Below are positions 1,342 through 64,000 of a DNA stretch of 64,000 nucleotides, piece after piece. The stretch's first letter is position 1; each line of letters begins with the position of its first letter. Both the position numbers and the translations under genes were made by a program. The notes beneath the pieces are model-generated. The model saw only the letters and a program-made list of their open reading frames with translations. It had not been told where the DNA came from and searched no databases. This DNA is from Yuukianura sp. NJ FZ-2021 (Eukaryota), in the NCBI GenBank assembly GCA_046563655.1, contig CM102286.1:10540001-10604000 (forward strand), in the 5' to 3' direction.

Positions 1342-1829
1342 TAATTGGTGTTGTTCCTGTACTTTTGTGAATCAGTTTGTATGCCACATGTTTGCTCTCC
1401 CTCCGCAAACCCGCGTGGTTTATGTTTTTTATTACATATTACAAAGCCGATGTGCTTTACTTAAACAAGAACTCCTGTCATTGTCTTCAACCAATCTCAT
1501 GTTCACTACATTTTGGATTGGATAATTGCAGGATGTAACTAATTTTAATTTTAATTACAGCACCTTGCCCGCAAAGTAAGAATCACTAACAATAACAGTG
1601 ATTTCCTGAGCTACTGACCCGCAATTGTGCATAACAATAACACCATGCGGAATTATATTAGCAACTTTGAATTCAAAACTTTATTAATTCCTTTGTTATT
1701 TTATTTTCCCTAACTCTTTCCAATTAAAAGGCGTCGTAAAGCTATGGGAGTGTGAAGAAAAGAAAGTTTATGCGTCATTTCAAGAGAAAAAATTTGAGTA
1801 AATTTCAACCTTGGTAAGAACTTAAAAGT

Positions 1830-4650: not shown

Positions 4651-5040
4651 TAAAACAATGAAAATAAATTAGCACCAATTTTAGTACCAATCAATCCGAA
4701 GTATTTGTTATCAATTCTTATGCAAAATTTAAACAGTTCGGCTGTATTGTTATGACTACGACGCCCTGAGATGAAAAGGCAATTATTTTGCAAAATCAAA
4801 AAAAAACATAAGGTGTATTACCCTAGCTTTTAAAGAAAATCAATATCAACAAACGTTGGTTCCGTCTGTTATCGTCAGACACTTATACAGATCGTCTTCT
4901 TATTAAATGCGTGTATTTATTATTATGGCCAGTAATTGGTAAATTCTCGGCTTCAATTAATGTGAGATTGGCAAAGCTATACGAAGTGGTACGAAATAAC
5001 GTTTAAAACAGTAATTTTTAACTCACAAAGAAAAGAAATT

Positions 5041-7040
5041 TCAACGCTGGTAAGAACTGAAGAGCCTAAATCTAGGAAAAGTTTCGGTAAACACGTCGCG
5101 ACAAACTTTGAAGTTTCTGAAAATCACGCACTCCTGACCATCGGCACAGTCCGAGTTTCTTGCGCAGAAGCAGGAGTCCATCAGTGCGCAGTGCTGCTCT
5201 TCTGTGCTCAAAGTCAGCTGATTAGACACTCCCGTGACTCTTCTTCCAAAATTGTTCATGAACAGGCCATTCGGGTCGTACTTTTTCAGATACGTCCGAA
5301 ATTTAGCCAAATTTGGAGCACTACGCATGATCATTTCTCTGCTGTGGAACACCGCTCCGTTGGATGACCAGTGAGGTCTCCCGCCATGTTCAAACACCTA
5401 AAAATTAACAAGTTTTGAAAAAAAAGATTGCGGTAAAATTATTCTAAACTATTACTCTAAACTAAGCTTTTTACCAACGCCTGTTCAATTGCCTGGTACG
5501 CTGCAAGTCCCGCTCTGGCAGTGACGTATCTGCGCCTGCGCATTGGTGTGACGATCTCTATATTAAACGTTTCCCGTCCAAATTCAGATGACATCAGGCT
5601 GGTTGCCGGGGGACCAAATTTTAACAAAATGCCAATAAACGGAAAATGTGCTGGATACTGCTCCAGAATGCTTTTGATTGTCTTGATAACTGGATCAAAT
5701 TCTTCAATTGGCATAGAAAATCCGTTCACCACTGGATAAATCCCAAAGTCCCACCCACATTTGCCCGGAGTACAGCGATTGGTTGTCAGATCATGAGCGT
5801 AGCCAATGGCAGGATTCTTAAGCGTTTCTCCACCATCTTCCGAAAAATATGCTTGCCGCTGTGGAACTTTATGATAAAAAGAATACTCCGCCAATCGCTC
5901 CATTGTGTTTAATAAAAGTCGGCTTCTGTATTTCTGCGCAAACTCATAAATGCTTCGAATGACGGTAGCCATCAGTGGTGTGACGTCAAGTATTTGATGT
6001 ACTTTGGCATTCCCCGTGACGTTGACACCCACGTACTTCCCTTTTGAAGCAACAACAGAACGTGTATTCGGGAACCACCAAAATTGAGCCCAATCGAACT
6101 CACGAGCCGTCTCTACCGGAAAACCGCCAAGAAGAACCGAATCTGAAATCCGATAATTCTCAATTTTCATGTTGTACGCCTGTACGGTTCGGAATGTAGC
6201 GTCAACTATGATCCCAAGCAGACCCAAGTGAACTCTAAATGCATCGAGGTCTTCTGGACGACTTTCGTCAATAATCACGGTTTTACCGGTACCGTCAATT
6301 ACTGTCATCCGAATCACGAGTGACGATATCGATACTGGATGAATTAGAGTTGCCCCTCTGACGCCCGTTCCAAGTCCACCACCAACCGTTACCCCACCAT
6401 AAAACAGGAATTGGCCATCTAATGCTCTCCCGCGAATTTTCAATTCCTCAATCAAATCTGCCACGGTCGTTCCCCCTCCGGCCGTGACCGTGTTGGCGGC
6501 GGAATCGAATCGAACGTAGTTAATTCTGTGCATGTCAATTGGAATTCCGTCTGTACAGATTATGTCACTCATGGAATGGAGTGCTCCAAGGGCTTTTACG
6601 GTACTGTTCGTACTAATGGCACGAAAAACGATTTGGCGCAATTCTGCAACAGTGGATGGTCGCTGGATGTCGTGCATACTGGAACAAGGAACTTGCTTTT
6701 GATAATTTGTATAGCAAGTAGCACTGCAGAAAATTCTATAAACAAAAGAATTTTAGAAATAGAGTGATTATGAGACAAATATAATCAAGTCGAACTTTTT
6801 GTTAAATTCCTTTAGCTGAGGAGGAAGAGAAAGACTTAAGAGAAGTCTTAAATTTTAAATGTGAACTTGCATATACTCGCTTCGCTACTTTGTTTGGAAT
6901 TTGCAATTCATTAAAACACAAAGCTAGAATATTCCAGATCCAATTGAAAATAACTTACTATAAACTTAAACTTACTTAGTATTGTGTAGTTGTCCCAAAA
7001 TCAACACTATTCTTAATTTTGTAAACGAAAATGTCACCAT
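5041..7040 (-). CDS. Plant-type L-gulonolactone oxidase-like flavoprotein, copy 2 (exons 7040-6976, ~6723-5475, 5397-5041)
   Basis: GALHS, GGRPHW, YDPNGLF and CALMDSCFC..C..C tail. Same three-exon structure as copy 1, with a 65-nt first exon. Confidence 0.88.
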
Positions 7041-8197: not shown

Positions 8198-11100
8198 ATG
8201 GCAACATTTTCGTTGACACTTTTAGGAATAGTCTTGGTCTTGGGACTAGTCTAAGTAATAATACACAGTGTGTGTCCGGGGGTGACTAAAGGTCGGAATT
8301 CTGCTGACTCCTCGGATTTGTATGAGGGGTGCACGCACACTATCAATGTGCGGACTTTACTAAACAACAGGTTACGTTTAGCACAACAACTCCTAACCTG
8401 TTCCTACGCATTGCAATGTAACTTACAAAAATAAATAATAAATGTATACCATAAAACACAATGTCCGTCAGGCTGCGAAGGCTGACGTACACTTTACACT
8501 GAGTCATTGTACTGTACCAATACTTTGGTGAGTACAAAACTAATTGTATCACACTGGATGCCAATTCAAAAATCAAATAAGTCTATAGTTTGCTAACTAA
8601 CCTAACATATAACCCTACTTTAATTCGATTATTATTAGGTTAGGCAAAAAAAAATCACACAACTTCGGGAGGGATACAACCAGGTGATGCTACCTTGAGT
8701 GTAGAGGTTTTAGCATGACTATACCTCTGAAGAGAACTTTTCCTCTGAAAGAGGGTTTAAGTGCACATTGTACAGAGTCATTGTTCTCTTTCATTTCGGT
8801 TTGCCTACTTATTGTATCCGTAAGCATGTAAAACTCAAAAAATGTACGTTTTGCAATTAAATACCTAATACCTAACCTGCACTACTCCTGCTGGCTTATA
8901 GTCTTCGTGCGGAGCAATCTATACCACATTACAAAATCCCCTTAGCCCTTTGCCGTTCGGTTGTCCTCTTCGTGTGTGAGTGGTGTGGCTAAAGGTCGAA
9001 TATCGGACTCCTCTGATTCATCATGAGAAAGGCGCACACTCTTATCTTTCCAGTTGGAGCAAAAAATACAAGGGATGGGATGCGGCAAAGCGGAATTGCA
9101 TCCGCTGTATCCTTGCGAAGGGTGACTGCGATATTTTTGTGGCGACTTCGTCCGTCAATCCAACCTTTTGATTTGCAGTGATGCAAATTCGTGTGAGAGG
9201 GGTCTGGCTAAAGACCGCATCGCTGACTCGAGCGAGGAAGAAAAGGTTTAGGTTTAGCAAAATCTGACAAAAGCTAACCAGTATTGCAACAAAATTTCAA
9301 ATCGGTAGTTTCGGAGAATAATTAGTAGTAAGTAGAGGGAATGAGCATGTCAATCTCAAGACATGGCTTAATTTCGGCCCCGGTTGAAAAGGTGATGGCG
9401 CCATAAGACCTCATTAGTTTAGAGCAAGATTGGAACTCGGTTGACGTAAGATTAACAACGGTGTATGTTCCCACCAACGGATTATTTTTTTGAAGGGGTA
9501 CTTAACGGTTCTGATATTATTTCTTTGTCCAGTTAGTCCGTCAATCAGGTTACATACGAAATCCTCGAGCCATCAGCGCCCCCGCCAGGGGGCGCCATGG
9601 CTCGTAAACAATAAGTAAGTTTACCGCAAATTTTGGAACTAGATTTTGAAAATTCTAATTTTGCATTTTTGAAAAATAGGAAAACTAAAAAACGTAAACA
9701 ATATAACATTTTTTGGATAATTTTATGCAGAGCTGCTACTTATACAAATTTTCAAACGGAAGCTGCTTGCTACAGTGCGTACGACATCCAGCGACCATAC
9801 AATGTGGACGAATTGCGCCAAATCGTTTTTCGAGCCATCAGTTTAAACAGTACCGTAAAAGCACTTGGAGCACGTCATTCCATGACTGACATAATCTGCA
9901 CTGACGGAATTCCAATTGACATGCGCAGAATCAACTACGTTCGATTCGATAATGCTGCCAACACTGTCACGGCCGGAGGTGGAACCGCCGTGGGAGATTT
10001 AATAGAAGAATTAAAAATTCGCGGTCGAGCTCTAGCTTGCCACTTTCCCTCTTACGGTGGAGTGACGGTTGGTGGTGGACTTGGAACGGGCGTCAGAGGG
10101 GCAACTCTAATTCATCCGGTATCGATATCGTCACTCGTGATTCGGATGACAGTAATTGACGGTACCGGTAAAACCGTGATTATTGACGAAAGTCGTCCAG
10201 AAGACCTCGATGCATTTAGAGTCCACTTGGGTCTGCTTGGGATCATAGTTGACGCTACATTCCAAACCGTAGCTGCTTACAACATGAAAATTGAGAATTA
10301 CCGGATTTCGGATTCGGTTCTTCTTGGCGGTTTTCCGGTAGAGACGGCTCGTGAGTTCGATTGGGCTCAATTTTGGTGGTTCCCGAATACGCGTTCTGTT
10401 GTTGCTTCAAAAGGGAAGTACGGGGGTGTCAACGTCACTGGCAATGCCAAAGTACATCAAATACTTGACGTCGAACCGCTGACGGCTACCGTCATTCGAA
10501 TCACTTACGAGTTTGCCCAAAAATACAGAAGTCGGCTTCTATTAAGCACAATTGAGCGTTTGGCGGAGTATTCTCTTTACCAGCAAATTCCACAGCGACA
10601 AGCTTATTTTTCGGAAGATGGGGGGAAAACCCTTAAAAATCCTGCCATTGGCTACGCTCATGATCTCACAACCAATCGCTGTACTCCGGGCAAATGTGGC
10701 TGGGACTTTGGGATTTATCCCATCATAGCGTCATTTTATGTACCAATTGAAGAGTTCGATGCTGTTATCAAGTCAATCCAAAGCATTCTGGAGGAGTATC
10801 CAGCACATTTTCCGCTTATTGGAATTTTGTTGAAATTTGGCGCCCCGGCAACAGGCCTGATGTCGAATGATTTCGGACGGGAAACGTTTAATATAGAGAT
10901 TGTCACACCAATGCGCAGGCGTAGATACGCCACTGCCAGAGCGGGACTCGCAGCGTACCAGGCAATTGAACAGGCTTTGGTAAAAAGTTTTAAAGTTTAG
11001 AATAATTTTACCGCAATCTTTTTTTTTCAAAACTTTTGAATTTTTAGGTGTTTGAACATGGCGGGAGACCTCACTGGGCAGCCAACGGAGCGGTGTTCCA

Positions 11101-11404
11101 CAGCAGAGAAATGATCATGCGTAGTGCTCCGAATTTGGCTAAATTTCGGACGTATCTGAAAAAGTACGACCCGAATGGCCTGTTTATGAACAATTTTGGA
11201 AGAAGAGTTACGGGAATGTCTAATCAGCTGACTTTGAGCACAGAAGAGCAGCACTGCGCACTGATGGACTCCTGCTTCTGCGCAAGAAACTCCGACTGTG
11301 CTGACGGGCAGGAGTGCGTGACTTTCAGAAGTTTCAAAGTGTGTCGGGACGTGTTTACCGAAACTTTTCCTAGATTTAGGCTCTTCAGTTCTCATCAACG
11401 TTGA
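8198..11404 (+). pseudogene. Plant-type L-gulonolactone oxidase-like copy 3, inverted; exon 1 broken, exons 2 (9731-10979) and 3 (11048-11404) intact
   Basis: Exon 1 homolog MATFSLTLLGIVLVLGLV at 8198 hits TAA at 8252 and is separated from its GTAAGT donor (9615) by a ~1.35-kb insertion. The downstream frame is open, with GARHS and GGRPHW. Confidence 0.7.
8262..9609. mobile_element. Unclassified insertion in exon 1 of oxidase copy 3
   Basis: Absent from copies 1 and 2. Flanked by AATAA direct repeats (8257-8261, 9610-9614). A GC-rich hairpin GCGCCCCC-gcca-GGGGGCGC lies near the right end. Confidence 0.55.
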
Positions 11405-11742
11405 AAGGAAGTGATATTAAAATACCGTACAAGGTCATCTGGACTTAATTTGTAGTTGAATCGTAATTGTTAACACTTGACAGTGATTAGAACAACGCCA
11501 CAGTAAGATGGAGTGTTTTCACATTTTTTGTGTACCCAATGCAAACATAAAAGCAATCATTTTTTTATCTAACTCAATGTCAAGGTCATGCCTGCGCATA
11601 AACACTTATTTATTTAGTCAATTGTGTGGTATAAATACTATGGCTTCGGTACAGTAAAAATTTCTAGTGTCTCTTACCTATCACTTGAAACAACACACTG
11701 TTAAAATTAATACAACATTGAAATTCCTTTAGCACGATAGAA

Positions 11743-52249: not shown

Positions 52250-53295
52250 CAAATTTTTTCACGTTTTCCAGTCTTCTTTGATACATTTGGCGGATGAATC
52301 ATGCACACACTTTAAAAGTGTGACTACAAGTCTCTTAATTAAAACCTTTTTTTGTCGGTTGTTCATTTAACATATCGACTAAACGGTGACACCACTTGAA
52401 GAACAATTCAACCGTCTTCGTGTTAACCATATCTTATGGTCAGGAGTGGATGTTCAGTGATATAACCAGTGATTGATTAATTCCTGTGGCACAGGTTATG
52501 ACCTAGTTGGGACTTTATAGCTCTCACCCTATATCAGGATGGAGCTCAAATTTCGAAATTTGGAAAAGTTTTTACACTCGCCAAAGTAAAGTTTCGTTTT
52601 CTCCCTGAAAACCTCCAACATGTCAATACGTTTATGTGTGAGGCATCGATACAATTGTCAATTGAGAAAGCTGCAATCCCTAAGAATATTGAAGTTAATC
52701 ATGAAGGACGAAACTATGTACTCCAAATGGATACTGAAGCACAAAAAAAAGTTTGATGATATTCAAGCATCTCTCGAATCGAGCGAACAATATCTTTCTT
52801 GTTTACCCAAATTAAGTGAAAAAAACATTAAAGAACTTTCTAATGATGTGAGTAATTATAACATTAAAAAGCAATTAACCAATTAAAAAATGACACTTGT
52901 CCAGGTCTTGATGGCCTCACAAGCGAATTTATTTTAAAATTTTGTGACGAATTCTCGGAAATCTATTTTTGGTTATGGAAACAATCTATATGTCAAAACG
53001 TAATGCCTAAGAGCATGCGTGCTGGCGTACTCAATTTAATTTATAAAAAAGGAAATCCTAACGAACTTTCTAATTGGCGTCCAATAATTTTGTCAAGTTG
53101 TGACTACAAAGTTTGCTCTACCATATTTAAAAGTCGCATTTAAAATGTTATAGCTAGTCTAATTTCTCCAGCACAAACTTGCAGTATCCATGAAAGAAGT
53201 AATTTTGATAATCTTCATTTTGTACATGAAAACGTAAATAACGCCACCACAGGCGCGTTTCTTTCAATCGATCAAGAATCTGGTTTTGATAATAT
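52250..53295 (+). mobile_element. L1/Tx1-like non-LTR retrotransposon ORF2 remnant, cut by the Gypsy LTR
   Basis: Frameshifted peptides GDHH (endonuclease end), CPGLDGLTSEF, LIYKKG..NWRPIILSSCDYK, LISPAQT and LSIDQESGFDNI (RT domains 0-3), ending exactly at the LTR. Confidence 0.85.
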
Positions 53296-53520
53296 TGTAA
53301 CGAAGTCGTTGACCTTTCGGTTACTCATCTTATGGTAAACTCATTTTCATAACTTTTGCGAATTGTAAAGTTAGCATGCAAAAACATATTGATTGTTATT
53401 TTACATTGTGTAAACTTTGGGCCCATAATGTAGCCAGTCCTAGTCTTTTGAGAGAGTTTAGAGGTCGTGAGAGGTCAAGTTCAGCCCCAGTATCCGGTTA
53501 GCGTAAGGCTAACCGTGACA
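53296..53520 (+). repeat. 5' LTR (225 bp) of the Gypsy element, followed by a primer-binding site
   Basis: TGTAAC...GTGACA termini. Perfect stem CGGTTAGC/GCTAACCG at 53495-53515. TGGTGGACGAGCC starts 2 nt downstream (53523). No second copy was found in the window. Confidence 0.75.
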
Positions 53521-53591
53521 AGTGGTGGACGAGCCAAGTTGTGTTTTGTCTAAAAAGTTAGATTAAAACTGTACAGTACTCAGCCTTTTGC

Positions 53592-54452
53592 ATGTCCGAA
53601 GAAGAAAGTTCTTCAGAAATGGCTACAGCTAATGTAACTAGTGACCTTAAGAATGTTTTAAGGTCAATCCCTAAGTTCAATGGAAAAACGAACATAGAGT
53701 TGTTCTGTGCAAGATGCGATGCAGTGATCGCAGCAGGTCAGATTGACACGAGGTCAATTATCCTGAATTTCCACTTCCTAATTGAAGGAGAAGTCTAAGA
53801 TTGGTGGAGTTGGACACAGTTAAAGTTCATTAAGGACTTAACGGCCCTTAATCGTGACCAAAAGTGGACAGAACTGAAAGCGGCTCTAAAAATGTTGTAC
53901 GAGCCGGAGTCAGTTCGTAAAGAAGCTAAAACCGCTTCAAAAACAATTCGGTTTACTGACTGTGCGTCAGCGGGTGAATACGTCACCAAAAAGTTATGTT
54001 ACTTTGGGATTATGAATCCCAATATGAGCGATGAGAACCAAGTTGAAAAGTTAATTAAGGGATTACCTGAGAACTTGCGGAACATTATGTATTGTTCAGA
54101 ACCAAAAACAACGGCTGAATATTTGCAAAAGTTGCGAAAATTAGATAAGCCGACCAGTAATGTGATGAAAGAATTCACATTTAAATCACAGAACACTGCT
54201 AGTAACAGTCATACTAGAAAGGTTGTCGAGAGTTCGTCTCGAACAACGTCCTGATAAGGATGATCGTCGTCTAAATCGGTTAAGCCAAATGGATGTTTCT
54301 ATTGAAAGGAAACTGATTACTTACTAAACTGATTACTGATTACTTAGGACTGTCCAAAGTGTCCTTATAAAAGAGAACCGAAAAGCTCAAGTTCAGTGAT
54401 GAATGTCACAAGTGATGTCACTGATGATGTAGTTTGTTCAAAAAACCAGTAG
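53592..54452 (+). pseudogene. gag: Gypsy gag with premature stops and a degenerate CCHC knuckle
   Basis: IPKFNGK, ..LIKGLPE.., GCFY*KETD...DCPK. Ends at TCA AAA AAC CAG TAG. Confidence 0.8.
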
Positions 54453-54479
54453 AGAAAGTGGAGTTCTACCACTTTAAAA

Positions 54480-56076
54480 ATGGAACAAACACCAAAACTA
54501 GGTAGTCAGATTTGTGATAAGATCACAAATGTAAACAAACACAAAAGTTGTGTTGAAACAGCTGATGTTTCATGTTTAGTATTAAGTCCTATTCTGCGCA
54601 GGTCAGGAGGGAAATCTAGTGCAAAAGTCAGAAAAAGTTCTAAAATTGCAAAATCAGGGCCGTACACCTCAGTTGAAGGACAAAAGTTGTCAGCTTCATT
54701 TAGAGATAGGCGTATTGGACCCAAAATAGTTACTGAATTTTTGATCAGTGGATCAAAATTCAATATTCGAGTTGATGAGGGCAGTAACATAAGTGTTATC
54801 AGCCCTGAGTTCTTGTCAAAAGTGACAAAAGCTGTACATAAAAGTTATGCAGTGCCGACACTGACAGTGCAGACGGCCCTGCAGAAAATCCAAATTTCGG
54901 AGTTCGTTGAATTAAAAGTAATTCACGAAGGTGAAAGTATCCTGTGGGGCTTTCACATTATGCCCGGATTTTTAGAGGAGATTTTGTTAGGAACAGATTG
55001 GACAACAAGGTCCAAATGTTCAAAATCTCAAAATTCAAGTCCAGAAATCGGCGAAAGTCTAAGTGACACAGTTCCCGATTTACCAAATTCAGATGAAATG
55101 TCAAAAGGTCAAGTTGAAAATCCTGTGTGGAAATTCAAATTAGTCGAGTCAGTTACGCTACCTCCGTGGAATTGCGTAAAATTAAAAGTTCATTGCCCTA
55201 AGTTAGTTTCAGGTTCGGTTGTGATGAGTCCAAACCGAGATTTACAATTTGAATATATGTTAATGCAGCCGTATGTGTACGCTGTCATTAAAAATAGCGA
55301 GACGGACCTGTGGGTCACTAACCTGAACAGAGTTCCGGTTACAGTCAACAAAAACACCACAATTGCTACTGCGCATGCGTGCGCAGAAAAAGCTACAGTA
55401 ATGGTTCTAAGTGAACAAATGGAAGAATCTCAAGTCAAAATTAGTCCCAAGGTCAAGGGTGACCTTCAAGTTAAGTTGGGGGAGCAGTTGACCCTCCATG
55501 AAAAGCGGGAAATTTTGAAAATATTAGAAGATTATTCGGATGTCTTTGTGACAGACGAATCAAAAGTTGGTAAGACCAACTTAGTTAAGCACAAAATAGA
55601 TACAGGGGATCATCCGCCTGTCCCACTTGTACCATGCTTCCTTTGTGGAACGGGGTAGGATCAAAGAGAAAGTACAAGATTTGTTCAGGGCCGGCATTGT
55701 CGAAGAGTCGACCTCGCCATGGGCCGCACCTGTGGTATTAGTACCAAAGAAAGATGGAACTTGGAGGTTATGTTGTGACTTCCGGAAGTTGAATTCCATC
55801 ACAAAGAAAAATGCATATCCTTTACCAAGGATGGAAGATGCATTAGATAGATTGGGCGGAGCCAAATATTTTTCAGTTTTGGATTTAGTCTCTGGGTTCT
55901 ACCAAATTGAGGTAGATGAGCAAGACAGAGAAAAGACCGCCATTGTAACACCAGATGGGTTATACCAATTTAGACGTCTTCCAGTGTGATTATGCAATTC
56001 ACATTCGACATTCCAGTATTTGATGGATATTGTTCTATCAAAATTAAAATGGTCCAGTGTCTTAGTGTACCTGGAT
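54480..56076 (+). pseudogene. pol: Gypsy pol 5' part: protease, dUTPase-like spacer, RT up to YLD
   Basis: Frameshift near 55627. TGA at 55987 replaces the G of the usual P.GL motif, and the frame continues LCNSHSTFQYLMDIVLSKLKWSSVLVYLD. Confidence 0.9.
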
Positions 56077-56396
56077 TGTGGATGTGTATTATTCAAAGTA
56101 TGATGGGTTGGTGTTGGATGATATTAATGTGAGGGGGCTTTCTGATGAAGACAAGATACATTTGGTGGATTTGGATTTGCCTACGAACATAAATGTTCGT
56201 TATCATGTTGCTTATATCCCTGCGAAATTCCCTCGAATATTCACTACTAACTTGAACAAGGTTGAATTTTTTGCTTGTAACAATGAGGCGCAAAAAAAAG
56301 GCTACTTGGAATCGGGTGAGCTTTCATACTTTTTTGAATGATTTATACACCCGCCCAGTTGAGGTAGTTACAATTGATGATGAGATTCATGAATAA
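56077..56396 (+). other. rep: Endogenous CRESS-DNA virus Rep fragment (C-terminal SF3 helicase)
   Basis: YDGLVLDD (Walker B), IHLVD..NINVRYHVAYIPAKFPRIFTTN (motifs B' and C). After a frameshift in an A-run it reads KATWNRV..DEIHE-TAA, with AATAAA overlapping the stop. Confidence 0.8.
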
Positions 56397-56404
56397 AATG
56401 TTTA

Positions 56405-56970
56405 TTAAGCAGGGAGCTGCTGTTGTCTAACTTGAAAGTAGTGGTATTGTTGTAAATCTAGTTTTATAGTAGTAAGTTGTTTATAATTTTCTTGAATTGA
56501 GAGGTCTAGTGCTGCTGTTATGTCCGTCACACCAAGGAGTAGGCCCCCGTTGGATTCGTATTCAGCTACGGGTGCGACGTTGTTGTTTAGTTGAGTCCAA
56601 TAGTGGGGGGTCCAATTGTTGCCTGTCCATTTGGAAACATTTTCCGTTCCCCACCAGCTTTTGTATTGTCGTGGGCATTTAAATGTGAATTTTTTAGACC
56701 GCCCTATGCCAATTTTTTTGACTCCATTGTTTTGAGTCCAAGTCCGGGGGTCGACGGATTCTGGGGTAGAATAGCGTTGGAGAAAGTCAACATGAATTGG
56801 ATGGTCCCTGTGTTGGATGATTTGGGTTGGCGCTTCGAGTCCTTTTTGGTCGTTGAGTTTGTATATAACTGAGGTGATCTCAACTGGTTTGACGACGTAG
56901 GTGGAGCCTGTGTATCTCATCATCATCCAGTTTTGAGTTTTTGTGAAGAGGATGGTTCTGGTTTTGATTG
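56405..56970 (-). other. Endogenous CRESS-DNA virus capsid-like ORF fragment, convergent with Rep
   Basis: Open, intronless 173+ aa frame ending 8 nt from the Rep stop with its own AATAAA. Beta-rich composition (GVKKIGIGRSKKFTFKCP, TIKLDLQQYHYFQVR). The assignment rests mainly on position. Confidence 0.6.
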
Positions 56971-57007
56971 TAAATGTAAATGTAAATGTAAATAGGACAA
57001 CATTTTA

Positions 57008-57376
57008 TTGGTACGATTTAGAACAATTCAGTGTCTATTATTGGACGTTAGTAGAAAAACAGCAGCGGAGAAGATTTTCTCAGAGTATTCTTGGATTGAG
57101 TTTAATCAAAGTCAACAAGAGTGGGAAGTTTATTTGGGGAGACATTTGGATCAGTTTTTCAAAGATCGAATTTATCGAGTGATTGAGTTAATTGAAGAGT
57201 ATTCTGACGACGACGACAGTTACGAAGAGCACATTAGCTACAAGTTTCGTGAATGTTTAGAAGACTGGCGGTATAGTTACATTGACATTGAACTTTCAAA
57301 TTTGAATTCAAGCCGAGCTCTCATCAATCCAGTGTTGTTTGACTACCACTTCACCGTTTATGAATCCGAATCATGA
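57008..57376 (+). other. Densovirus NS3-like ORF fragment
   Basis: Acidic/aromatic ORF directly upstream of and overlapping the NS1 (57360) and NS2 (57373) ATGs, which is the ambidensovirus layout. Confidence 0.5.
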
Positions 57377-58776
57377 GCCAAATGTAGACGCCAGAAGCCC
57401 CAATCCCTCCAATCGCTCCGTCTACGAAAATCGAAGTCTGTCGAAAATTTCGAGATCCAAGCGTCGAGCTCCTTTGGAAACTCACGATTCAACACCAAAA
57501 AGACGCGATGGGTACATCTCATCGGATTCCAGGGACGAGGCTCTGAGTATGATGACGCTACCTTCAAGCAACATGTACAATCCTTCACAGAAGATGTCAT
57601 TGCCACATGCCACTCAAGATGCACCCAAGGATTCAGACTTTGACGCCGACAACAGCCACTTCCATGTCGTCTTCAAGTATTACCGAGGATCCCGAGTTTT
57701 TGAACTCTGGAATCATTGGATTAATCGATTCAACTATTACTTCAAGGCCAGCGACGTCTCGAATGTCGAGCGCCTCCGAGAATATTTACATCGCGGGGAG
57801 GGACGGGACATACTATACGAAAAAGCTAACTACGTCCCGGACTACATCCCACGTGACACTGGATTTCAGCGTCTCCGAGCATCCAACAGTAAGTACCACT
57901 TGACAATTATATTTTCAAACTACTTTTTATGATTGTCTCTTGTTACTTTCAGATTCAATCAGCGAAGTTCGGTCCGAAAATTAGGCAAGTGAAAGCCCAA
58001 ATTCCGAAGGACCACCCAATTCTCCAGCAGTTGATGAACTTCAGGGATCACACTTGGCAACAGTCATGGAAGGACGTCAAGGTGGAGACGCACCAAAAGG
58101 TAAGCGTCGCGTCGTCTTACTATCGACGATGATTGAAAAGTACAAGCCAGAGACATCTCTTGAATTTATTCAAGCAATTCAAACCTTAGGCACCAGATTT
58201 GAAAAGGATTTTCTTCAATACAATAACGTTTCAAGCCAGTTTTCTTATTTACTAGATACTCAAATTTACAATAATCATCTTCAAAACAAGTAGACTCCTT
58301 GGCTTTCTCTTATTGAAACTTGTCCAATTGATGCTCTTTCCATTCGAAAAAATTTATTGTCAGTTGAAGACACTGAAGGATGGCTTCTTTCAATTCTTGA
58401 ATTTAATTCAATTAATCCTTTTGATTTTGTGTCTACAATTTATGAAGTTATGGATAGACGTAAGCCTAAAAACAATACAATTTGGTTTAAAGGTCCTCCC
58501 AATTGTGGAAAGAGTCTGATTGCAAATTCAATTGGAGATAGTTGTAGTTATGCTTTTCGTGGGGATCAGCCTGACCCACGTGAAGCTAGGTTTGTCTTTG
58601 CAGGCTTAGCCACAGCACGTGTAGGGATTATGAATGAATTTCGAGTTTATAGTAATACTGTAGATAAAGTTTTACTCATTCTTGAAGGAGCTGACGTAAT
58701 TAACGACGTCAAATGTAAACAAGGCGTAAACATTCAAAGAACTCCAATTATTATTACAACAAATGGAAATGTTTGG
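57360..58776 (+). other. NS1: Endogenous densovirus/parvovirus NS1 with overlapping NS2-like frame (57373-58132) and a 64-nt intron at 57889-57952
   Basis: HUH motif SHFHVV, EYLHRGEGR, Walker A GPPNCGKS, Walker B IMNE, motif C PIIITTN. Two in-frame TAG stops. Confidence 0.9.
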
Positions 58777-61053
58777 AGCCCTACTTTTGAAGTACACCAG
58801 CAAAGGCTGTTGACGGTCCTGCAGAGGCTAAGAGATGCCAACTTAACTTTGAAAAGTTCAAAGTGTAGTTTTGGAGAAAGCAAGATTAAGTATCTTGGTC
58901 ATTTGATTTCTGCAGACGGAATCGAAGTTGACCCTGAAAAAGTTTCAGCAGTGACGAAATTTTCAGTGCCGTCAAATCAGACCCACATTCGTTCTTTTGT
59001 GAACATGTGTGGTTATTATAGGCGTTTTATCAAGGATTTTGGTAAAATAGTTACGCCACTGAATTTTCTTTTACGTAAAGATCAACCTTTTGTTTGGGGT
59101 AAAGAACAGCAAAGTGCGTTTGACACCCTAAAACTTGCATTAGTTTCAAGCCCTATCTTAGCGTTTCCGTTAGAAAACTGTTCTAACGAAATTCATTGTG
59201 ATAGTTCTGGATATGGAGTTGGCGCGACATTGGTCCAAATCCAGGAGGGTAAGCCCAAGGTCATTGCTTATGCTAGTCGTAGCATGACAGACATTGAAAA
59301 ACGATATACGGCAAGTGAGCAAGAGTGCTTAGCTGTCGTATTCGCAGTTCAGAAGTTTAGGCCGTATGTGTATGGTACACATTTTTCAGTGCTCACTGAC
59401 CACAGTGCGCTAAAGTGGCTATTTTCTGTCAAAAACCCACATGGTAGGTTAGCCCGTTGGTCGTTCTTGCTACAGACGCAAGATATGACGATTATTCATC
59501 GTGCGGGTAAAGCGTCTAACGATGTAGACCCACTGTCAAGATATCCAGTAGGATCGGCCGAGTCTGTGGATTCGTCAGACCTACTACTGGTTAAGTGCAC
59601 TTCAAAAAGTAAACAAAGTGAAAGTGAAATTCAATCAGTTTGTAATTTCTCTCATTCTCAAGTTAAGTCACTTAGTGAGAAAGTGTTAAGTGAAGTGTTG
59701 TCATTGGAAGGAGTCAACATGCAAGTTCAGCAGCAGCAGGATCCTTGGATTCGAAAGATTGTGACTTTCATCCAAAATGCTGAAAACAAAGTGAAACAGT
59801 CGAAGAAACCTCCAGTGAAACACTTAGACGACTTCAGTTTACAGAATGGAGTTCTGTATATTGCTAATTTTGAAGAAAGTGAACGTTCGTGGAGATTAGT
59901 TCTTCCGAAAAGTCTTCGGAAAGACGTTCTGAAGTCGATACATTCAAGTGACCTAGGTGCTCACTTAGGAATGACAAGAACATGGATTTTGGTAAGATCT
60001 CGTTTTTATTGGCCTGGTATTTATCGTGACACCAGAAGATTTGTTCTAGGATGTCAGATTTGCCAAGTACATAGAGTTAGACGAGGTCAAGAATATGGAA
60101 CAATGCAAGATTTCGAAGAGGTCAGTAGTCCCTTCGAAAGAGTAGGCGTTGATTTCATAGGCCCTTTTGTAGCGTCACGTGGTAACGCAAATAAGTATGC
60201 GTTAATCATGGTTGATCATTTTAGCCGTTACGTAGAGTCCGTTGCTGTTCCGAATGCGACAGCAGAAGTAGTAATTGACGGAATTGTGAATAAGATCATT
60301 TTACGGCATTCGTTGCCAAAAGAGTTCGTTTTGGACCAAGGGAGGCAGTTCACTGCTAATTTAGTGAAATTAGCAAAAGAAAAGTTAAAGTTCAAGGTGA
60401 ACTTTACGTCCCCTTACCATCCTCAAGCAAACCGATTAACGGAAAGGTGCAATCAGACCCTTAAGATGTCGATTGCAAAACTTACAGAGCCTGATCAAGC
60501 AAATTGGGACAATTGTTTAAGTTCAGCTACTTTCGCGTATAATGTAACGCGACAGGAAAGTACTGAATATAGTCCATTTTTTTTAGTCCATGGTAGACAG
60601 CCTAGACTGCCTATAGACATGGATTTACCAGTTGATGAAACTGTAGAGGTTAGGACACCGTTTCCTAAAGAGTTAATGGCTGCTAGGTGCAAAGCCATTG
60701 TTAATTCTAGAAGAGCTCATGAGAAATCTAAAGTTAGATTTGACAGGAATAAGAGAGATAGTCCTTTTGTCATAGGTGACAAAGTGTTAAGAACAGTACC
60801 GACAATTAAGAAAGGTTTGTCCCAGGCATTTTTGCCTAAGAAAACAGGACCATTCGTCATCGTGAAAAAAGTTTCCGATGTAAATTTTCAAATTAACGCA
60901 TTGTTCGGAAAGAGAAAGAAGCCATTTACAGTTCATGTGAGGGATTTGACCCCTTACTACAGTGATTTTGAGTCAGACTCATCATTTACATCTGCAGAAA
61001 TAAGTTCCAGATCGAACGAAGTCACTAGTTCAAGTACAAAAAGTTGTACTTAG
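58357..61053 (+). CDS. Chimeric 898-codon ORF: NS1 SF3 helicase fused to Gypsy RT C-terminus, RNase H and integrase
   Basis: Continuous frame ..RTPIIITTNGN-VW-SPTFEVHQQRL..KCSFG..YLGH. Expression is not demonstrated. Confidence 0.75.
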   Translation: MSVEDTEGWLLSILEFNSINPFDFVSTIYEVMDRRKPKNNTIWFKGPPNCGKSLIANSIGDSCSYAFRGDQPDPREARFVFAGLATARVGIMNEFRVYSNTVDKVLLILEGADVINDVKCKQGVNIQRTPIIITTNGNVWSPTFEVHQQRLLTVLQRLRDANLTLKSSKCSFGESKIKYLGHLISADGIEVDPEKVSAVTKFSVPSNQTHIRSFVNMCGYYRRFIKDFGKIVTPLNFLLRKDQPFVWGKEQQSAFDTLKLALVSSPILAFPLENCSNEIHCDSSGYGVGATLVQIQEGKPKVIAYASRSMTDIEKRYTASEQECLAVVFAVQKFRPYVYGTHFSVLTDHSALKWLFSVKNPHGRLARWSFLLQTQDMTIIHRAGKASNDVDPLSRYPVGSAESVDSSDLLLVKCTSKSKQSESEIQSVCNFSHSQVKSLSEKVLSEVLSLEGVNMQVQQQQDPWIRKIVTFIQNAENKVKQSKKPPVKHLDDFSLQNGVLYIANFEESERSWRLVLPKSLRKDVLKSIHSSDLGAHLGMTRTWILVRSRFYWPGIYRDTRRFVLGCQICQVHRVRRGQEYGTMQDFEEVSSPFERVGVDFIGPFVASRGNANKYALIMVDHFSRYVESVAVPNATAEVVIDGIVNKIILRHSLPKEFVLDQGRQFTANLVKLAKEKLKFKVNFTSPYHPQANRLTERCNQTLKMSIAKLTEPDQANWDNCLSSATFAYNVTRQESTEYSPFFLVHGRQPRLPIDMDLPVDETVEVRTPFPKELMAARCKAIVNSRRAHEKSKVRFDRNKRDSPFVIGDKVLRTVPTIKKGLSQAFLPKKTGPFVIVKKVSDVNFQINALFGKRKKPFTVHVRDLTPYYSDFESDSSFTSAEISSRSNEVTSSSTKSCT

Positions 61054-61539
61054 AGTAGTGATGCAAAATAGTGCAACTAGTAAAACGGACAGTGTTAGTT
61101 ACACAAAGTCCAGTACCTCCAGTCAAGGTCAGAAGAGTTCATACAGGAGGCAGTTGCCTATAAAAGTAGTTCCTGACATTGATTCTAGTTCATTTCCAGT
61201 TCAAAACCCTGACGGTGCTGACGACGAGTCGTTTGAAGAAGTTCAACTCAGAAGGTCAACAAGAGTACGTAAGGCACCGAAACGCTATGGTTGGTCCAGC
61301 GAAGAAAACTGACAGTAAGTTCTGGACTAAGGTATAAGTACCTTCGGTTCATGCACAGTCGCCTGTGTTCAATTTTCGAAATTGGAAGTTAGTTTGTAAG
61401 TCACTTTGTAGGAATTAGTAATTTATATTATTGTATCTTCAGAGAGGAGCAATTGGCTCTCCTCAACATCGGTCCAGATGACGAAGAGGAAGTTGATTGG
61501 GATTTAGTCAATGGCAGTAGTAACCACTCTGTGGGCGCT

Positions 61540-61731
61540 AGTAAAAACAAACTTGACCTGTAGGTCAAAACATGTAAACATGACCTACTTTTCGACACCC
61601 AACTTTTGTCAGTGCAGGACACCCAACTTTTGTCAGTGCAACTGCACTGACAAAAGTTGCACTGTCTGCGAGTAAAAACAAAAACAAAAACAAACCTGAC
61701 CTACAGTTCAAAAATGTAAACATGACCTAGT
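61540..61731. repeat. Local duplication plus perfect 17-bp hairpin
   Basis: AGTAAAAACAAA..TGACCT..ATGTAAACATGACCTA twice, ACACCCAACTTTTGTCAGTGCA twice, and inverted arms at 61624-61640 and 61643-61659. Confidence 0.8.
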
Positions 61732-62339
61732 TGCACTTTCAGAGTGCATGAGAAAATGATGATCTCATTTCTTCTCCCAGTGGAGAAGAGTATACGAGAG
61801 TAATCTTAGTTTAGCCCGTGGAACTGAGATGGGACCTTTCCATCACAGTTTTACTGGCTAAACCATGGTTTTTGGGAGGTGTGGTTTTTGAGAAAGTGAG
61901 ATGCATCCCCCACTCCTCATTCCCACCCTGATGTGTCTTTACACAAAAAGCAGTTCTTCTAAAGCTTGGAGCGCGAGTGTTCCAGAAGTTAGTTTTTTTC
62001 TGTGTAACTTCACCATCTCATTTCTCATATCCCACCATTGAGTTTATGAGTTTTGTGCAGAAAAAGATTAAACTAACTTTTGGAACACCCGAGCCAGAGT
62101 GCGAATATGTCATAGGTGAAAGCAGAAATGTTTAAACAAAAGTTTCATCTTTGACAAAGTAGCATGTGCAATGTATCAATTTGTTATGACACTTAATTTT
62201 TATGACTTTCTTTCGCATTAATCAATACCCTGTGTGGCATCTTTGGAAATTTTGGTATTCAAATTTAGTTTAGTTGTTGAGCTTACAAATCAAAGTGTTC
62301 CAAAAAAGTTAGAACAAAAATTCGAAAACAATGACGGTG

Positions 62340-63718
62340 ATTTGTGGAATATGTCTTGTAGACATTTTGGAAGATGTGAGCGATGTGTTGTGGGCGATTT
62401 AGTGCTCACACGTATTTCACAAGTAAGTGAAAAATAATTTCTGAATATTTTTGATTCATTTTCAAAAAAAAATTTCTATGTTGTTTTACAAAAAAAAAAT
62501 AATTCTTTCGCTTGTTTTGAAATTCGTTATCTTTTGTTGTTTCAGACGATGCCTCCTCATTGCAAATCAATCTTGGATATATCGAAAAATTGATAAAGGA
62601 CGTGCGAAGGCAAAAGCTGAGAAAAGGCCTTACGTCAAACCTGAAAAATTCGAGTAAGTTTTTTTACCATACCATTTACCATATTCTTAGTAATAATTGT
62701 AATTTTGTATTTGTTTTTAGACCGCAATGTCCATTGTGTTTAACTCCGATGGAATTTAACCCGGAAACGAGCGAGACTTCTCCGTCCGTGGCTGGGATGA
62801 GGATTATTTTGAGCGAAGATGAGACGCCAAGACCAAGGTAAAATTTCGAAAAATTAAGCCCTATTAATTAATTAATTTGGTATATGAAGTTGAATGTTGT
62901 CTGTTTTGATTAGAACTCCACCACTTACCCCGCCACCCCCACCGCCCCCACCCACTGCACATGCCTCGACTTCGACAGGTTCAACATCCCCGTCACTTCT
63001 GGAATGCAGGTAAGTATTTTATTTTGTAAGAAAAAATTCGGCTTACAATTTTAAAACTAATCTTGGTTTGTAAAATTTCTTTTTGTTTTTTAGATGTATC
63101 AGCAAACAACCAAACTACTGCGAGTTGGTTGAAGAAAAAGTCAGGCAGCAGCGAATGAAAATTTATTCCGAAAAAAAACGTGCGGATGATGCCGAGGCAG
63201 TTCTGACAGATGTTTTGAGCCAAATTCCGCAACGACAAACCAACACTGAGGAAGCTGCACCGAATCAACATAAGCGACGGAGGACAGATTCCGATTTGAA
63301 CCGAGCTAATCCTGGACCGTCACGGAATTTGACCCCGACAACTGCAGGACCGTCACCTAATTCTTCACAGCCGACTGCAGGACCATCACGGAAATCGCTT
63401 CCGCCAAGTTCAGGACCGTCACGGTTGCCAACTGCAGGACCGTCACGGAACTCGGTCCAGGCAACTGCAGGGCCGTCGCGCAATCCACCAGAGCCGACTG
63501 CAGGACCGTCACGATATGTAGTGAAGCCGTATGCAGGGCCGTCACACAATCCAACACAAGCAACTGCAGGGCCGTCGCGCAATACAGCACAACCGGCGGT
63601 AAGAAATGCAGAATGTGACAACTCTGCTCGACAACTTCAGGTCAGATTGCGACGTCTGACACAAGAAGAAGTTGACTCGGTCTACATTGATTCCGGGGAG
63701 GAGGAGGCGGACCATTAG
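62340..63718 (+). CDS. Multi-exon uncharacterised gene with CxxC motifs, a polyproline stretch and a TAGPS repeat tail
   Basis: Short GT-AG introns, CERC and CPLC motifs, and a final exon with nine GPS-centred repeats (mostly 33 bp). The start was not located. Confidence 0.55.
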
Positions 63719-63861
63719 TTTATGCTTTATTAAATTTTGAGTAAAATATTTTAAAACAAATTTCAATTCAAAAAAATCTGAAAAAGAAACTGTTAATATG
63801 CTAAGACAATAAGCTGTGTATTACTTGGGATGTTGAGTTTTAAAAAAGTTTCAACACATCT

Positions 63862-63975
63862 ACCACCACCACAACCACCACAACCCCAAGAAACACCACC
63901 ACCACCACCACCACCACTCCCAACAAACACCACCACCACCACCACTCCCAACAAACACCACCACCACCACCACAA
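63862..63975. repeat. (CCA)n-rich microsatellite
   Basis: Interrupted CCA/CAA runs. Confidence 0.9.
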
Positions 63976-64000
63976 TCAGTTATAAACAACCTTTTAAAAG

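Follow-up and report, generated by a model that had tools for sequence, protein, structure and literature searches.

A composite of virus-derived DNA in the catalytic motif of a Ty3/Gypsy reverse transcriptase, probably joined from two ssDNA-virus sources

Results

A Ty3/Gypsy element interrupted in its reverse transcriptase gene

The window (the whole 64-kb stretch of DNA analysed) contains a Ty3/Gypsy element whose reverse transcriptase (RT) is split by a long insert. Its gag-like ORFs at 53592–54254 (+ strand, first Met at 53592) are divided by a stop codon at 53796–53798; the gag assignment is weak because the Pfam match to Retrotrans_gag (9e-4) scores 19.9 bits against a cutoff of 24.1. 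A protease-region ORF of pol follows at 54453–55658 (+ strand; Pfam gag-asp_proteas, 0.0091, under the cutoff) and ends through a frame shift near 55619, a 2-nt gap with respect to other family copies: Gypsy-family contigs from two of the public runs described below (X1 and X3) have 2 letters inserted after this position.

The N-terminal part of RT, comprising fingers and palm as far as Y-L-D, spans 55600–56076 on the + strand, matches positions 1–120 of Pfam RVT_1 (2.6e-14) and Ty3 RT (4OL8; 4.6e-34), and contains an in-frame TGA at 55987–55989. It stops at TAC CTG GAT (..VYLD, 56068–56076), and the RT frame (position mod 3 = 1) picks up again at 58771 with VWSPTFEVHQQRL (VWSPTFE), a break and same-frame resumption that a sequence-only reading of this DNA had described. 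In an alignment with 4OL8, Y213-L214-D215 mark the end of the left piece and I219-F220-S221 the start of the right one; three residues are absent in between, within the one to three codons of the YLDD region that had been thought missing. From 58771 to 61053 (+ strand), 758 open codons encode the C-terminal part of RT (3.5e-32 against Ty3 RT), RNase H (Pfam RT_RNaseH, 2.5e-34) and integrase (Integrase_H2C2, 2e-19; rve, 1.1e-12). No LTR pair for the element was detectable within the window. The insert is surrounded by ~10 kb of TE-derived sequence, made up of a LINE-like fragment, Gypsy and repeats; ordinary genes, and no large TE cluster, are found upstream in the window.

Boundaries of the insert and contigs that cross its joints

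The insert occupies 56077–58769. In uninterrupted Gypsy-family contigs (depth 278.8 in X1 and 187.1 in X2), 56076 is joined to 58770 with 8 letters between them, and therefore 2693 nt have replaced 8 nt of RT. Alignment to such intact copies had been proposed earlier as a way to define the deletion and any microhomology; the aligner reported 0 letters fitting both sides of the 56076/58770 joint. Neither a TSD nor a TIR was found at the insert ends, in agreement with the sequence-only reading. Five nucleotides of the left flank, TGGAT, are repeated 2 nt inside the insert, perhaps through templated synthesis, perhaps by chance.

Junctions were checked in contigs separately assembled from four public runs, X1–X4. 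Three of these (X1, X2 and X4) come from one sample, perhaps the window's own source; X3 carries a different organism label, belongs to a different study and is ~1.8% divergent. All three joints are crossed: the left by X2 record 10 (55954–56298), the internal joint between the two virus-derived pieces by X3 record 22 (56833–57764) and also by X1, and the right by X3 record 23 (57890–59400) and X4 record 24. Among the X3 pieces listed, none holds the left junction. X1 record 6 (2751 nt, 56047–58799) extends 30 nt into both flanks, one letter under the 31 letters of flank from which the tool counts a contig as bridging.

The whole insert is a single contig in X1, of even depth (55.2) and without branches; uninterrupted family copies in that run reach ~279 versus 55 for the insert, depth not being the same as copy number. 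Only one further contig, from X4, shares this right junction; it runs upstream into sequence of window positions 53391–53420 and is therefore a deletion variant of the same locus, not a transposed copy. With uninterrupted copies deeper than the insert and the X4 contig so explained, the earlier description of the insert as retrotransposon-carried is not supported.

The right piece: a parvoviral NS1

The right part of the insert can be assigned on solid sequence grounds to NS1 of Parvoviridae. It matches Pfam PF01057 (Parvo_NS1; 3e-22, 79.4 bits, cutoff 20) and AAV Rep40 (4.5e-10), and its only detectable relative, P0001 (571 aa), aligns at 6.3e-70 with 48–52% identity. Neither tblastn with P0001 nor self-blastn revealed a second copy of the insert within the 64-kb window. 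In the N-terminal part of NS1 (57360–57888, + strand), tblastn placed P0001 residues 67–135 on 57633–57839 at 36% identity, and HFHVVF (57657–57674) and LYEK (57813–57824) are conserved between the two; searched alone, this part gave no Pfam or PDB match. A 64-nt GT..AG intron-like stretch follows at 57889–57952 (+ strand; GTAAGT, a pyrimidine run, CAG). If it is skipped, the two NS1 frames join, and P0001 is continuous there; host introns in the window measure 57–125 nt.

The NS1 linker and SF3 helicase lie at 57953–58773 (+ strand; Pfam, P0001 and AAV Rep40), with Walker A at 58492–58515, Walker B at 58624–58641 and motif C at 58747–58764. The gene is cut just past motif C, at the equivalent of residue 425 of 571 in P0001, and a chimeric stop-to-stop ORF (58294–61053, 919 aa) puts the NS1 helicase in frame with the C-terminal part of RT. 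Two in-frame TAG stops interrupt NS1, at 57982–57984 and 58291–58293; the X1 and X3 contigs have a different letter at 57984 and lack that stop. Upstream of NS1 is a 126-aa ORF without Met (56996–57376, + strand), for which Pfam returned no match even at E 10; it could be a leader or accessory ORF of the parvovirus-like piece. Thus, of the densovirus NS cassette claimed earlier, NS1 holds and the upstream ORF is without a match.

The left piece: convergent Rep-like and capsid-like ORFs

The left piece looks viral in origin. At its left end is a Rep-like SF3-helicase C-terminal fragment (56077–56396, + strand), recognized through ESM Atlas look-alikes, with LVLDD at 56108–56122 and IFTTN at 56237–56251, which we take to be Walker-B-like and motif-C-like, respectively. 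The ORF has a frameshift in an A-run (56288–56295) and a stop in the window frame at 56339–56341; read through with X at the frameshift, it ends at a stop at 56394–56396. The tail beyond motif C is short, at 32–50 aa. The top rows in the Atlas are Rep fragments of Cressdnaviricota (0.95), which make up 29 of the 30 neighbours, along with one Parvo_NS1 row. No match was found in Pfam, PDB, IMG/VR or a 5.8-billion-protein search confined to proteins of 161–2000 aa.

On the opposite strand, a 199-aa capsid-like ORF (56405–57004, − strand) has its C-terminal stop but no start, the N-terminal side being cut. ORFs of at least 199 aa arise by chance 0.06 times per shuffled 64-kb window. Its Atlas neighbours are ssDNA-virus capsids, the top rows parvoviral VP (0.93), and the top cluster has PF00740 in 73% of its members; since recognition was 2130, under the threshold of 2300, this evidence is weak. 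Pfam, PDB, a near-length search among 5.8 billion proteins, the 1.84 billion representatives and IMG/VR yielded no sequence match, and an AF2 model reached a pLDDT of 28.7. The two ORFs converge on back-to-back poly(A) signals at 56392–56406 (AATAAA at 56392–56397 on the + strand and 56401–56406 on the − strand), each overlapping the stop of its own ORF, and the stops are 8 nt apart. The convergent ORFs of the CRESS-DNA Rep/Cap junction claimed earlier are real; the CRESS label itself found no sequence match and is suggested solely by the language-model look-alikes.

At the joint of the two virus-derived pieces lies a (TGTAAA)x4 microsatellite (56969–56992), and an 11-nt perfect inverted repeat (56392–56402 and 56999–57009) flanks the capsid-like segment.

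Decay and variants of the locus

Both the cassette and its Gypsy host are decaying through stops, frameshifts and deletion variants, and nothing suggests a working cassette. The X1 contig has a 2-nt gap at 57433, and X4 varies at 53421–57160 and 58946–59034. In X3, the 3′ end of the Rep-like ORF occurs in two forms, one with a 189-nt deletion (56265–56453) and ~1% different (record 18), the other undeleted and differing at 16 of 178 nt (record 19).

Discussion

The insertion of virus-derived DNA into a Gypsy RT at its YLDD region, as the sequence-only reading proposed, is genuine. Our preferred account of its origin, to which we give a probability of roughly 60%, is that a composite EVE was formed when two ssDNA-virus pieces were joined as dsDNA into a break in one Ty3/Gypsy DNA copy. 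The break would have fallen in the YLDD-motif codons of that copy. Piece 1 (56077 to ~56968) would be the convergent 3′ region of an ambisense virus, with the Rep-like tail on the + strand and the capsid-like ORF on the − strand, and piece 2 (~56993 to 58769) the 5′ two-thirds of a parvovirus/densovirus-like NS region ending past motif C. Host end-joining would have cost 8 nt of target without duplicating the site, the short hexamer repeat would have remained at the internal joint, and the in-frame resumption of RT would be chance (1 in 3). The composite would then have been inherited as a low-copy locus that two sampled lineages share. Anatomy, junctions, NS1 identity and decay are shown directly. 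We infer the joining pathway from the form of the junctions alone, and the family of virus behind piece 1 and the number of events, one or two, that built the composite are equally provisional.

End-joining of viral dsDNA is favoured over template switching because there is no TSD or TIR, only 8 nt were lost, one fragment is ambisense and an intron-like stretch is present. Piece 1 would derive from genomic DNA and not from one mRNA, since it holds two convergent gene 3′ ends and an intergenic spacer, and the retained 64-nt GT..AG stretch, missing in P0001, points to a DNA source for piece 2 as well. The two SF3-helicase segments overlap from Walker B to motif C without significant mutual similarity (BLASTP E 0.33 and 0.099), which argues for two different viral sources, as had been claimed. 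As the window has no detectable LTR pair, this copy may not have been an ordinary integrated one before the insertion, and a chimera that arose on Gypsy DNA outside the chromosomes and was integrated later is conceivable.

The insert is a real yet fairly ordinary viral fossil. Like the IHHNV EVE clusters described in Penaeus monodon (PMC9357335) and the Parvoviridae-like EVEs reported from Armadillidium vulgare (PMC4231630), it contains a truncated NS1 with stops, lies among retrotransposon sequences, lacks ITRs and TSDs, and is germline-inherited; the absence of TSDs is noted for the isopod EVEs (PMC4231630). Unlike the elements in those accounts, its NS1 has a single detectable relative at ~50% identity, adjoins part of another, unrelated virus-like genome, and is placed inside the catalytic motif of one Gypsy and not between TE pieces. 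The opossum circovirus-like rep/cap element, with rep and cap as opposite-orientation neighbours, and parvoviral rep+cap elements were attributed to genomic viral DNA and end-joining by the same reasoning (PMC3205384); here, in contrast to the opossum element as described, 3′ ends alone are present, with no HUH domain or origin stem-loop, and membership of Cressdnaviricota is not backed by sequence statistics. Densovirus DNA transfected into insect cells shows scrambled integration within repeats and TEs (PMC5978394). The Junonia coenia densovirus integrants reported in Sf9 cells resemble our locus in their random, rearranged integration by cellular recombination and in not retaining a complete viral genome, but were somatic and derived from one virus, whereas the present insert is a germline fossil with two sources (PMC5978394).

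We regard it as unlikely that the composite, or each half of it, was copied second-hand from an existing EVE cluster by templated repair or ectopic recombination. Shrimp parvovirus EVE clusters are described as scrambled and interleaved with retrotransposon pieces (PMC9357335), a microsatellite is located at the internal joint, and the two X3 forms of the Rep-like 3′ end hint at more than one copy there; however, the unbranched, even-depth contig in X1 agrees with there being one locus in that sample, and nothing further was found in the 64-kb window. A functional overlay, in which the cassette was retained as an antiviral piRNA source or archive, is doubtful: published accounts treat the EVE clusters of mosquito and shrimp as piRNA-like loci (10.1101/127498; PMC9357335) and the locus lies within ~10 kb of TE-derived sequence, but the sampled runs contain variants of it with large deletions, which speak against strong constraint, and the upstream window holds ordinary genes instead of a large TE cluster.

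Capture by RT template switching, as originally proposed, has little chance of being correct. By such copy-choice, RT would have jumped from Gypsy RNA to one viral RNA, then to a second, and back to Gypsy RNA before the chimeric cDNA integrated. The break does sit within the element's own RT gene, the NS1 and Rep-like ORFs, both on the + strand, share the Gypsy polarity, and with no LTR pair found more than one mode of integration is conceivable. Whitfield et al. took a shared-polarity bias as a sign of copy-choice, and the Aedes nrEVE/LTR-retrotransposon hybrids they describe likewise have viral fragments adjoining Ty3/gypsy in the same polarity, but they derive from RNA viruses (10.1101/127498), whereas our insert comes from DNA viruses and its junctions point to end-joining. 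Copy-choice does not predict flanks collinear within 8 nt, with re-entry at most 8 nt from departure and 0 shared letters at the joint. Moreover, piece 1 carries sense and antisense genes with an intergenic spacer, which no normal mRNA would, the intron-like stretch is still in piece 2, and uninterrupted copies exist, the insert contig being less deep.

Ambisense densoviruses have convergent NS1 and VP genes. On a one-virus reading, the whole insert would be a rearranged piece, or a concatemer, of one ambisense parvovirus-like genome, the Rep-like tail its NS1 C-terminus and the capsid-like ORF its VP, a view we consider very improbable. The capsid-like ORF is closest to parvoviral VP clusters in the Atlas and is bracketed by the 11-nt inverted repeat, but such a match is estimated to occur by chance about once per 3 kb. 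Walker B to motif C occurs twice, in versions not significantly similar (E 0.33), the Rep-like tail does not match the C-terminal 146 residues of P0001 and runs for just 32–50 aa past motif C, and the Atlas neighbours of the Rep-like fragment are overwhelmingly Cressdnaviricota (29/30).

Finally, it is scarcely credible that the junctions are absent from the organism and reflect an assembly chimera: the flanks are a multi-copy repeat, error-prone for assemblers, and three of the four runs share a sample that may be the window's source, but contigs cross the left (X2, and X1 by 30 nt), internal (X1 and X3) and right joints (X3, X4, and X1 by 30 nt), the last two also under the second organism label and study, in sequence ~1.8% different.

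Interruption of a Ty3/Gypsy reverse transcriptase by a 2693-nt insert

The reverse transcriptase (RT) of a Gypsy-type element breaks off after ..SVLVYLD at position 56076 and resumes in the same frame as VWSPTFEVHQQRL at 58771. Aligned with the Ty3 RT structure 4OL8, the left piece stops at Y213-L214-D215 and the right piece starts at I219-F220-S221, leaving 3 residues absent. Contigs of four public sequencing runs (X1–X4) were compared with positions 55400–59400, and in X1 and X2 we found empty-site contigs (depth 278.8 and 187.1, respectively) that join 56076 to 58770 through 8 letters. The insert is therefore defined as 56077–58769, 2693 nt that replace 8 nt. The net length change, +2685 nt, is divisible by three, as expected by chance in one case out of three. 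Alignment of the empty-site contigs reported 0 letters fitting both sides of a joint, and neither a target site duplication (TSD) nor a terminal inverted repeat (TIR) was found at the insert ends. The sequence reading, the 4OL8 alignment and the empty-site contigs thus uphold the interruption with in-frame resumption proposed in the sequence-only reading, and a repeat check of the insert ends agrees with the lack of TSD and TIR noted there; the proposed loss of 1–3 codons, with intact copies now aligned, becomes 3 residues absent relative to Ty3 and 8 nt replaced.

All three junctions, for which confirmation had been called for, are spanned by contigs: the left joint in X2, the internal joint in X1 and X3, and the right joint in X3 and X4. 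Record 6 of X1 (2751 nt, depth 55.2) covers 56047–58799, the entire insert with 30 nt of each flank, the flanks being 1 letter below the 31-letter bridging rule of the tool. X2 record 10 (55954–56298) crosses the left joint, X3 record 22 (56833–57764, 16 differences) the internal joint, and X3 record 23 (57890–59400, 27 differences) the right joint, as does X4 record 24. X1, X2 and X4 derive from a single sample, possibly the source of the window, and X3 belongs to a separate study with a different organism label. The left joint is absent among the X3 pieces listed; the X3 bin 55936–56069 and X4 before 57142 are uncovered, and such holes prove nothing. An assembly chimera is unlikely. Loose ends of X2 contigs were also noted (55611, 57152 and 58049), 3 of 4 starting with GATC, as expected for proximity-ligation (Hi-C-type) joints rather than structural variants.

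The interrupted element comprises gag-like ORFs from 53592 (Retrotrans_gag, 9e-4) and a protease-region ORF at 54453–55658 (gag-asp_proteas, 0.0091), both below the Pfam cutoff, followed by the N-terminal part of RT (55600–56076) and, beyond the insert, the C-terminal part of RT with RNase H and integrase (58771–61053), these last two delimited by ORF and Pfam. Pfam domains in pol follow the order RVT_1, RT_RNaseH, Integrase_H2C2, rve, and the left and right RT pieces match Ty3 RT 4OL8 at 4.6e-34 and 3.5e-32. By its pol order of RT, RNase H and integrase and its Ty3-related RT, the element is classified from sequence as Ty3/Gypsy (Metaviridae). Repeat search, self-blastn and local alignment found no LTR pair within the window; repeat search and self-blastn found no direct repeats flanking 53.5–61.3 kb, and local alignment of 53140–53560 with 61000–64000 scored 24, below the highest score of shuffled sequence (32). 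Given the missing LTRs, this Gypsy copy is truncated or rearranged. By eye, a PBS-like stretch starting with TGG lies just upstream of gag (53524–53540), with no LTR before it.

The right part of the insert is a parvoviral NS1 fragment by sequence

Translated 58294–58776 matches Pfam Parvo_NS1 (PF01057) at 3e-22 (79.4 bits, cutoff 20, HMM positions 84–210 of 271) and AAV Rep40/Rep68 at 4.5e-10, and an SF3 helicase with Walker A, Walker B and motif C is present. On this sequence evidence, the right piece is assigned to NS1/Rep of the Parvoviridae. A search for longer proteins returned one relative, a 571-aa protein (P0001) encoded on a 4155-nt Logan contig and forming a cluster of one. In tblastn, its residues 67–135 align with 57633–57839 (frame 3) and residues 150–425 with 57949–58773 (frame 1), the latter at 48% identity. 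Skipping 57889–57952 joins the two NS1 frames exactly. These 64 nt start with GTAAGT, contain a pyrimidine run, end with CAG, and fall within the length range of host introns (57–125 nt for the short introns of window genes), and we regard them as a putative intron. HFHVVF and LYEK, which line up with HLHVLY and LYEK in P0001, may be the N-terminal HUH nuclease motifs (HuH and Tyr) of NS1; the N-terminal part alone has no Pfam or PDB match.

The reading frame is interrupted by TAG stops at 57982 and 58291. The X1 and X3 contigs differ from the window in the letter at 57984, and X1 also shows a 2-nt gap at 57433; defects thus differ between copies, as expected of a pseudogene. NS1 homology stops at V (58771–58773), 1–2 residues past motif C, and the piece contains nothing that corresponds to the C-terminal 146 residues of P0001. 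No terminal inverted repeats were found at its ends, and no VP homology was detected in the insert by sequence search (Pfam, 5.8 billion proteins, 1.84 billion representatives). Lacking ITRs and VP, the right piece is a fragment and no full parvovirus genome. Searches for NS1 relatives in IMG/VR (with the helicase, P0001 and the NS1 alignment A1 as queries) and in JGI metagenomes (with A1) returned none. A 126-aa ORF immediately upstream of NS1 (56996–57376) has no match in Pfam. Of the "densovirus NS cassette" described from sequence, the parvoviral NS1 is thus supported by Pfam, AAV Rep and P0001, and the "cassette" is not, its upstream ORF being matchless; "densovirus-like" would be a label suggested by the invertebrate-like host context.

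An extended ORF was also observed here. A 919-aa stop-to-stop frame (58294–61053) places the NS1 helicase, from Walker A to motif C, in-frame with RT thumb, RNase H and integrase, and probably arose by accident as a by-product of the in-frame joint.

The left part of the insert has the layout of an ambisense ssDNA virus

The left piece contains a 91-aa Rep-like ORF on the plus strand (56066–56341) and, converging on it from the minus strand, a 199-aa capsid-like ORF (56405–57004); an ORF of the latter length is expected by chance 0.06 times per shuffled window. In the Rep-like ORF, we take LVLDD to be a Walker-B-like motif and IFTTN a motif-C-like sequence. The fragment begins about 10 residues ahead of the Walker-B-like motif, and the nuclease domain and Walker A are absent; the 5′ intergenic region, in which an origin stem-loop with a nonanucleotide would be sought, lies outside the fragment. 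Its frame shifts inside an A-run at 56288–56295, where an X3 contig shows a one-letter length difference (depth 2.6, a possible error). Read through the break with an X, it stops at 56394–56396, within AATAAA; the capsid-like ORF stops at 56405–56407, overlapping an AATAAA of its own strand. The two stops are 8 nt apart, with poly(A) signals back-to-back on both strands, which is the compact 3′ layout of an ambisense ssDNA virus. This convergent layout also occurs in ambisense parvoviruses and hence is not diagnostic of Cressdnaviricota.

Sequence searches with both ORFs were empty. The capsid-like ORF has no relatives among proteins of 109–349 aa in the set of 5.8 billion, 0 matches among 1.84 billion representatives (E up to 0.001), and none in Pfam (E up to 10), PDB (E up to 10) or IMG/VR. 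The Rep-like ORF has no relative among the 161–2000-aa proteins of the 5.8-billion word search and no match in Pfam (E up to 10) or IMG/VR; its read-through version (P0002) found nothing in PDB or Pfam. A PDB match of the Rep-like ORF to DDX53 (E 0.26) was rejected as a chance row. In the ESM Atlas, fragments of Cressdnaviricota Rep rank on top for the Rep-like fragment (0.95, 207 of 256 features in common); 29 of 30 hits fall in CRESS-dominated sets, and one row is Parvo_NS1. We treat this model-based resemblance as a lead only. The capsid-like ORF retrieves ssDNA-virus capsids, with parvoviral VP clusters at the top (0.93) and recognition under the tool threshold. Single-sequence AlphaFold2 models were unusable (pLDDT 28.7 for the capsid-like and 36.1 for the Rep-like ORF). 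The piece looks viral; what survives of the proposed "CRESS-DNA Rep/Cap" is the pair of convergent ORFs, the CRESS label having drawn no sequence match and only the ESM Atlas lead.

Over the same motifs, the Rep-like fragment has no significant similarity to the NS1 of the window or to P0001. The insert is therefore composed of two sources and not one gene, in line with the two unrelated viruses originally proposed. A (TGTAAA)x4 repeat marks the joint between the pieces (56969–56992). An 11-nt perfect inverted repeat (56392–56402 and 56999–57009) surrounds the capsid-like segment and could mark an inversion or be due to chance, with about 1 such match estimated per 3 kb.

Copies and variants of the locus

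In X1, uninterrupted RT contigs have depths of 250–326 and the insert contig 55.2, values that do not equate to copy number. An X4 contig (4373 nt, from the same sample as X1) has the right joint in common with the window and joins 53391–53420 directly to 57161: of the 60 letters upstream of 57161, the 30 shown are those of window positions 53391–53420. This match identifies a 3.7-kb deletion variant of the window locus and no new insertion. The variant has lost gag, protease, the N-terminal part of RT, the left joint and the left viral piece (53421–57160); 89 nt at 58946–59034 are swapped for 6 letters, and the 919-aa fusion ORF is disrupted. The idea of a retrotransposon-carried capture is thus not substantiated by this contig, and we saw no evidence in the run contigs of retrotransposition after capture. 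No function of the cassette is indicated, and the archive-like piRNA role suggested in the sequence-only reading would be improbable. The locus is a real composite endogenous viral element (EVE) within one decaying Gypsy copy, of a kind of EVE already known.

Origin of the composite

In the most likely scenario, a DNA copy of the Gypsy element was broken and double-stranded viral DNA was joined in at the break. Four features argue for such an event: the flanks are collinear within 8 nt and carry no duplication; the left piece is a genome stretch, with sense and antisense genes and a spacer, and no transcript; an intron-like stretch is retained in the right piece; and both virus pieces are cut arbitrarily inside coding regions. 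The same reasoning led to the proposal of NHEJ for neighbouring rep and cap elements in vertebrates (PMC3205384). Experimentally integrated densovirus DNA is scrambled and lies in repeats and TEs (PMC5978394), a pattern that this insert matches, and isopod EVEs (PMC4231630) share with it the absence of TSDs.

The composite may instead have been assembled second-hand from an older EVE locus, an unlikely origin to which X3, where the Rep-like 3′ end occurs in two forms (records 18 and 19), lends some support. The lack of LTRs on the element also leaves room for a chimera built on extrachromosomal Gypsy DNA as a scaffold, which would have captured fragments of replicating ssDNA viruses and integrated without integrase, thereby explaining the missing LTRs; on this reading the left piece would also be the sole known trace of an ssDNA-virus lineage. 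We hold this to be quite improbable. If true, the retrotransposon-viral DNA chimera pathway, which is known from RNA viruses, would extend to DNA viruses as well. Copy-choice by RT, from the Gypsy template to viral templates and back, has been proposed for RNA-virus EVEs adjoining Ty3/gypsy elements (10.1101/127498). It corresponds to the template-switching capture favored in the sequence-only reading and would require leaving and re-entering the Gypsy template within 8 nt and without homology; this 8-nt collinearity, the genomic nature of the left piece and the intron-like stretch speak against it and make it very improbable. An insert that is its own transposon was rejected for the lack of TIR or TSD, and site-specific integration mediated by Rep or NS1 because both virus pieces join within coding regions, far from any origin.

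With joining of viral DNA into a break as the preferred reading, the empty-site comparison (8 nt lost, no duplication) offers a tidy case of a DNA-virus EVE formed by break repair, and a caution that an EVE beside a Gypsy element need not mean RT-mediated capture. The locus records two small ssDNA viruses once present in the germline of an invertebrate-like host lineage, one from a parvovirus lineage otherwise represented to date by just one 4.1-kb contig, the other an ambisense virus without recognisable relatives. Its main value lies in this orphan ambisense fragment and in the clean empty-site comparison. Full-text literature searches listed no EVE of two ssDNA viruses within a retrotransposon RT motif; a new mechanism would be indicated only if this RT position held further inserts or the locus yielded small RNAs.

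Surroundings of the element in the window

The window is eukaryotic, and genes are densely packed along most of it. Three ALO/FAD-oxidase paralogues with FAD_binding_4 and ALO (D-arabinono-1,4-lactone oxidase-like) domains lie at 1800–3505 (−), 5036–6742 (−) and 9705–11406 (+); they are 88–90% identical at the DNA level, and one of the three is inverted. Other genes include a P450 and C2H2 zinc fingers. TE-derived sequence begins at about 52.9 kb with ORFs at 52868–53300, truncated immediately 5′ of the Gypsy element, which by eye we take to be the N-terminal part of a LINE-like (non-LTR) RT; Pfam at E 0.001 gave no match for them. On the 3′ side of Gypsy pol, a palindromic stretch between two direct copies of a word of about 20 nt forms, by eye, a foldback/MITE-like candidate (61560–61735). 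Further downstream, a repeat with a 33-nt period occurs 8 times at 63281–63612 within a 214-aa ORF, each unit encoding 11 residues rich in Pro, Ser and Gly.
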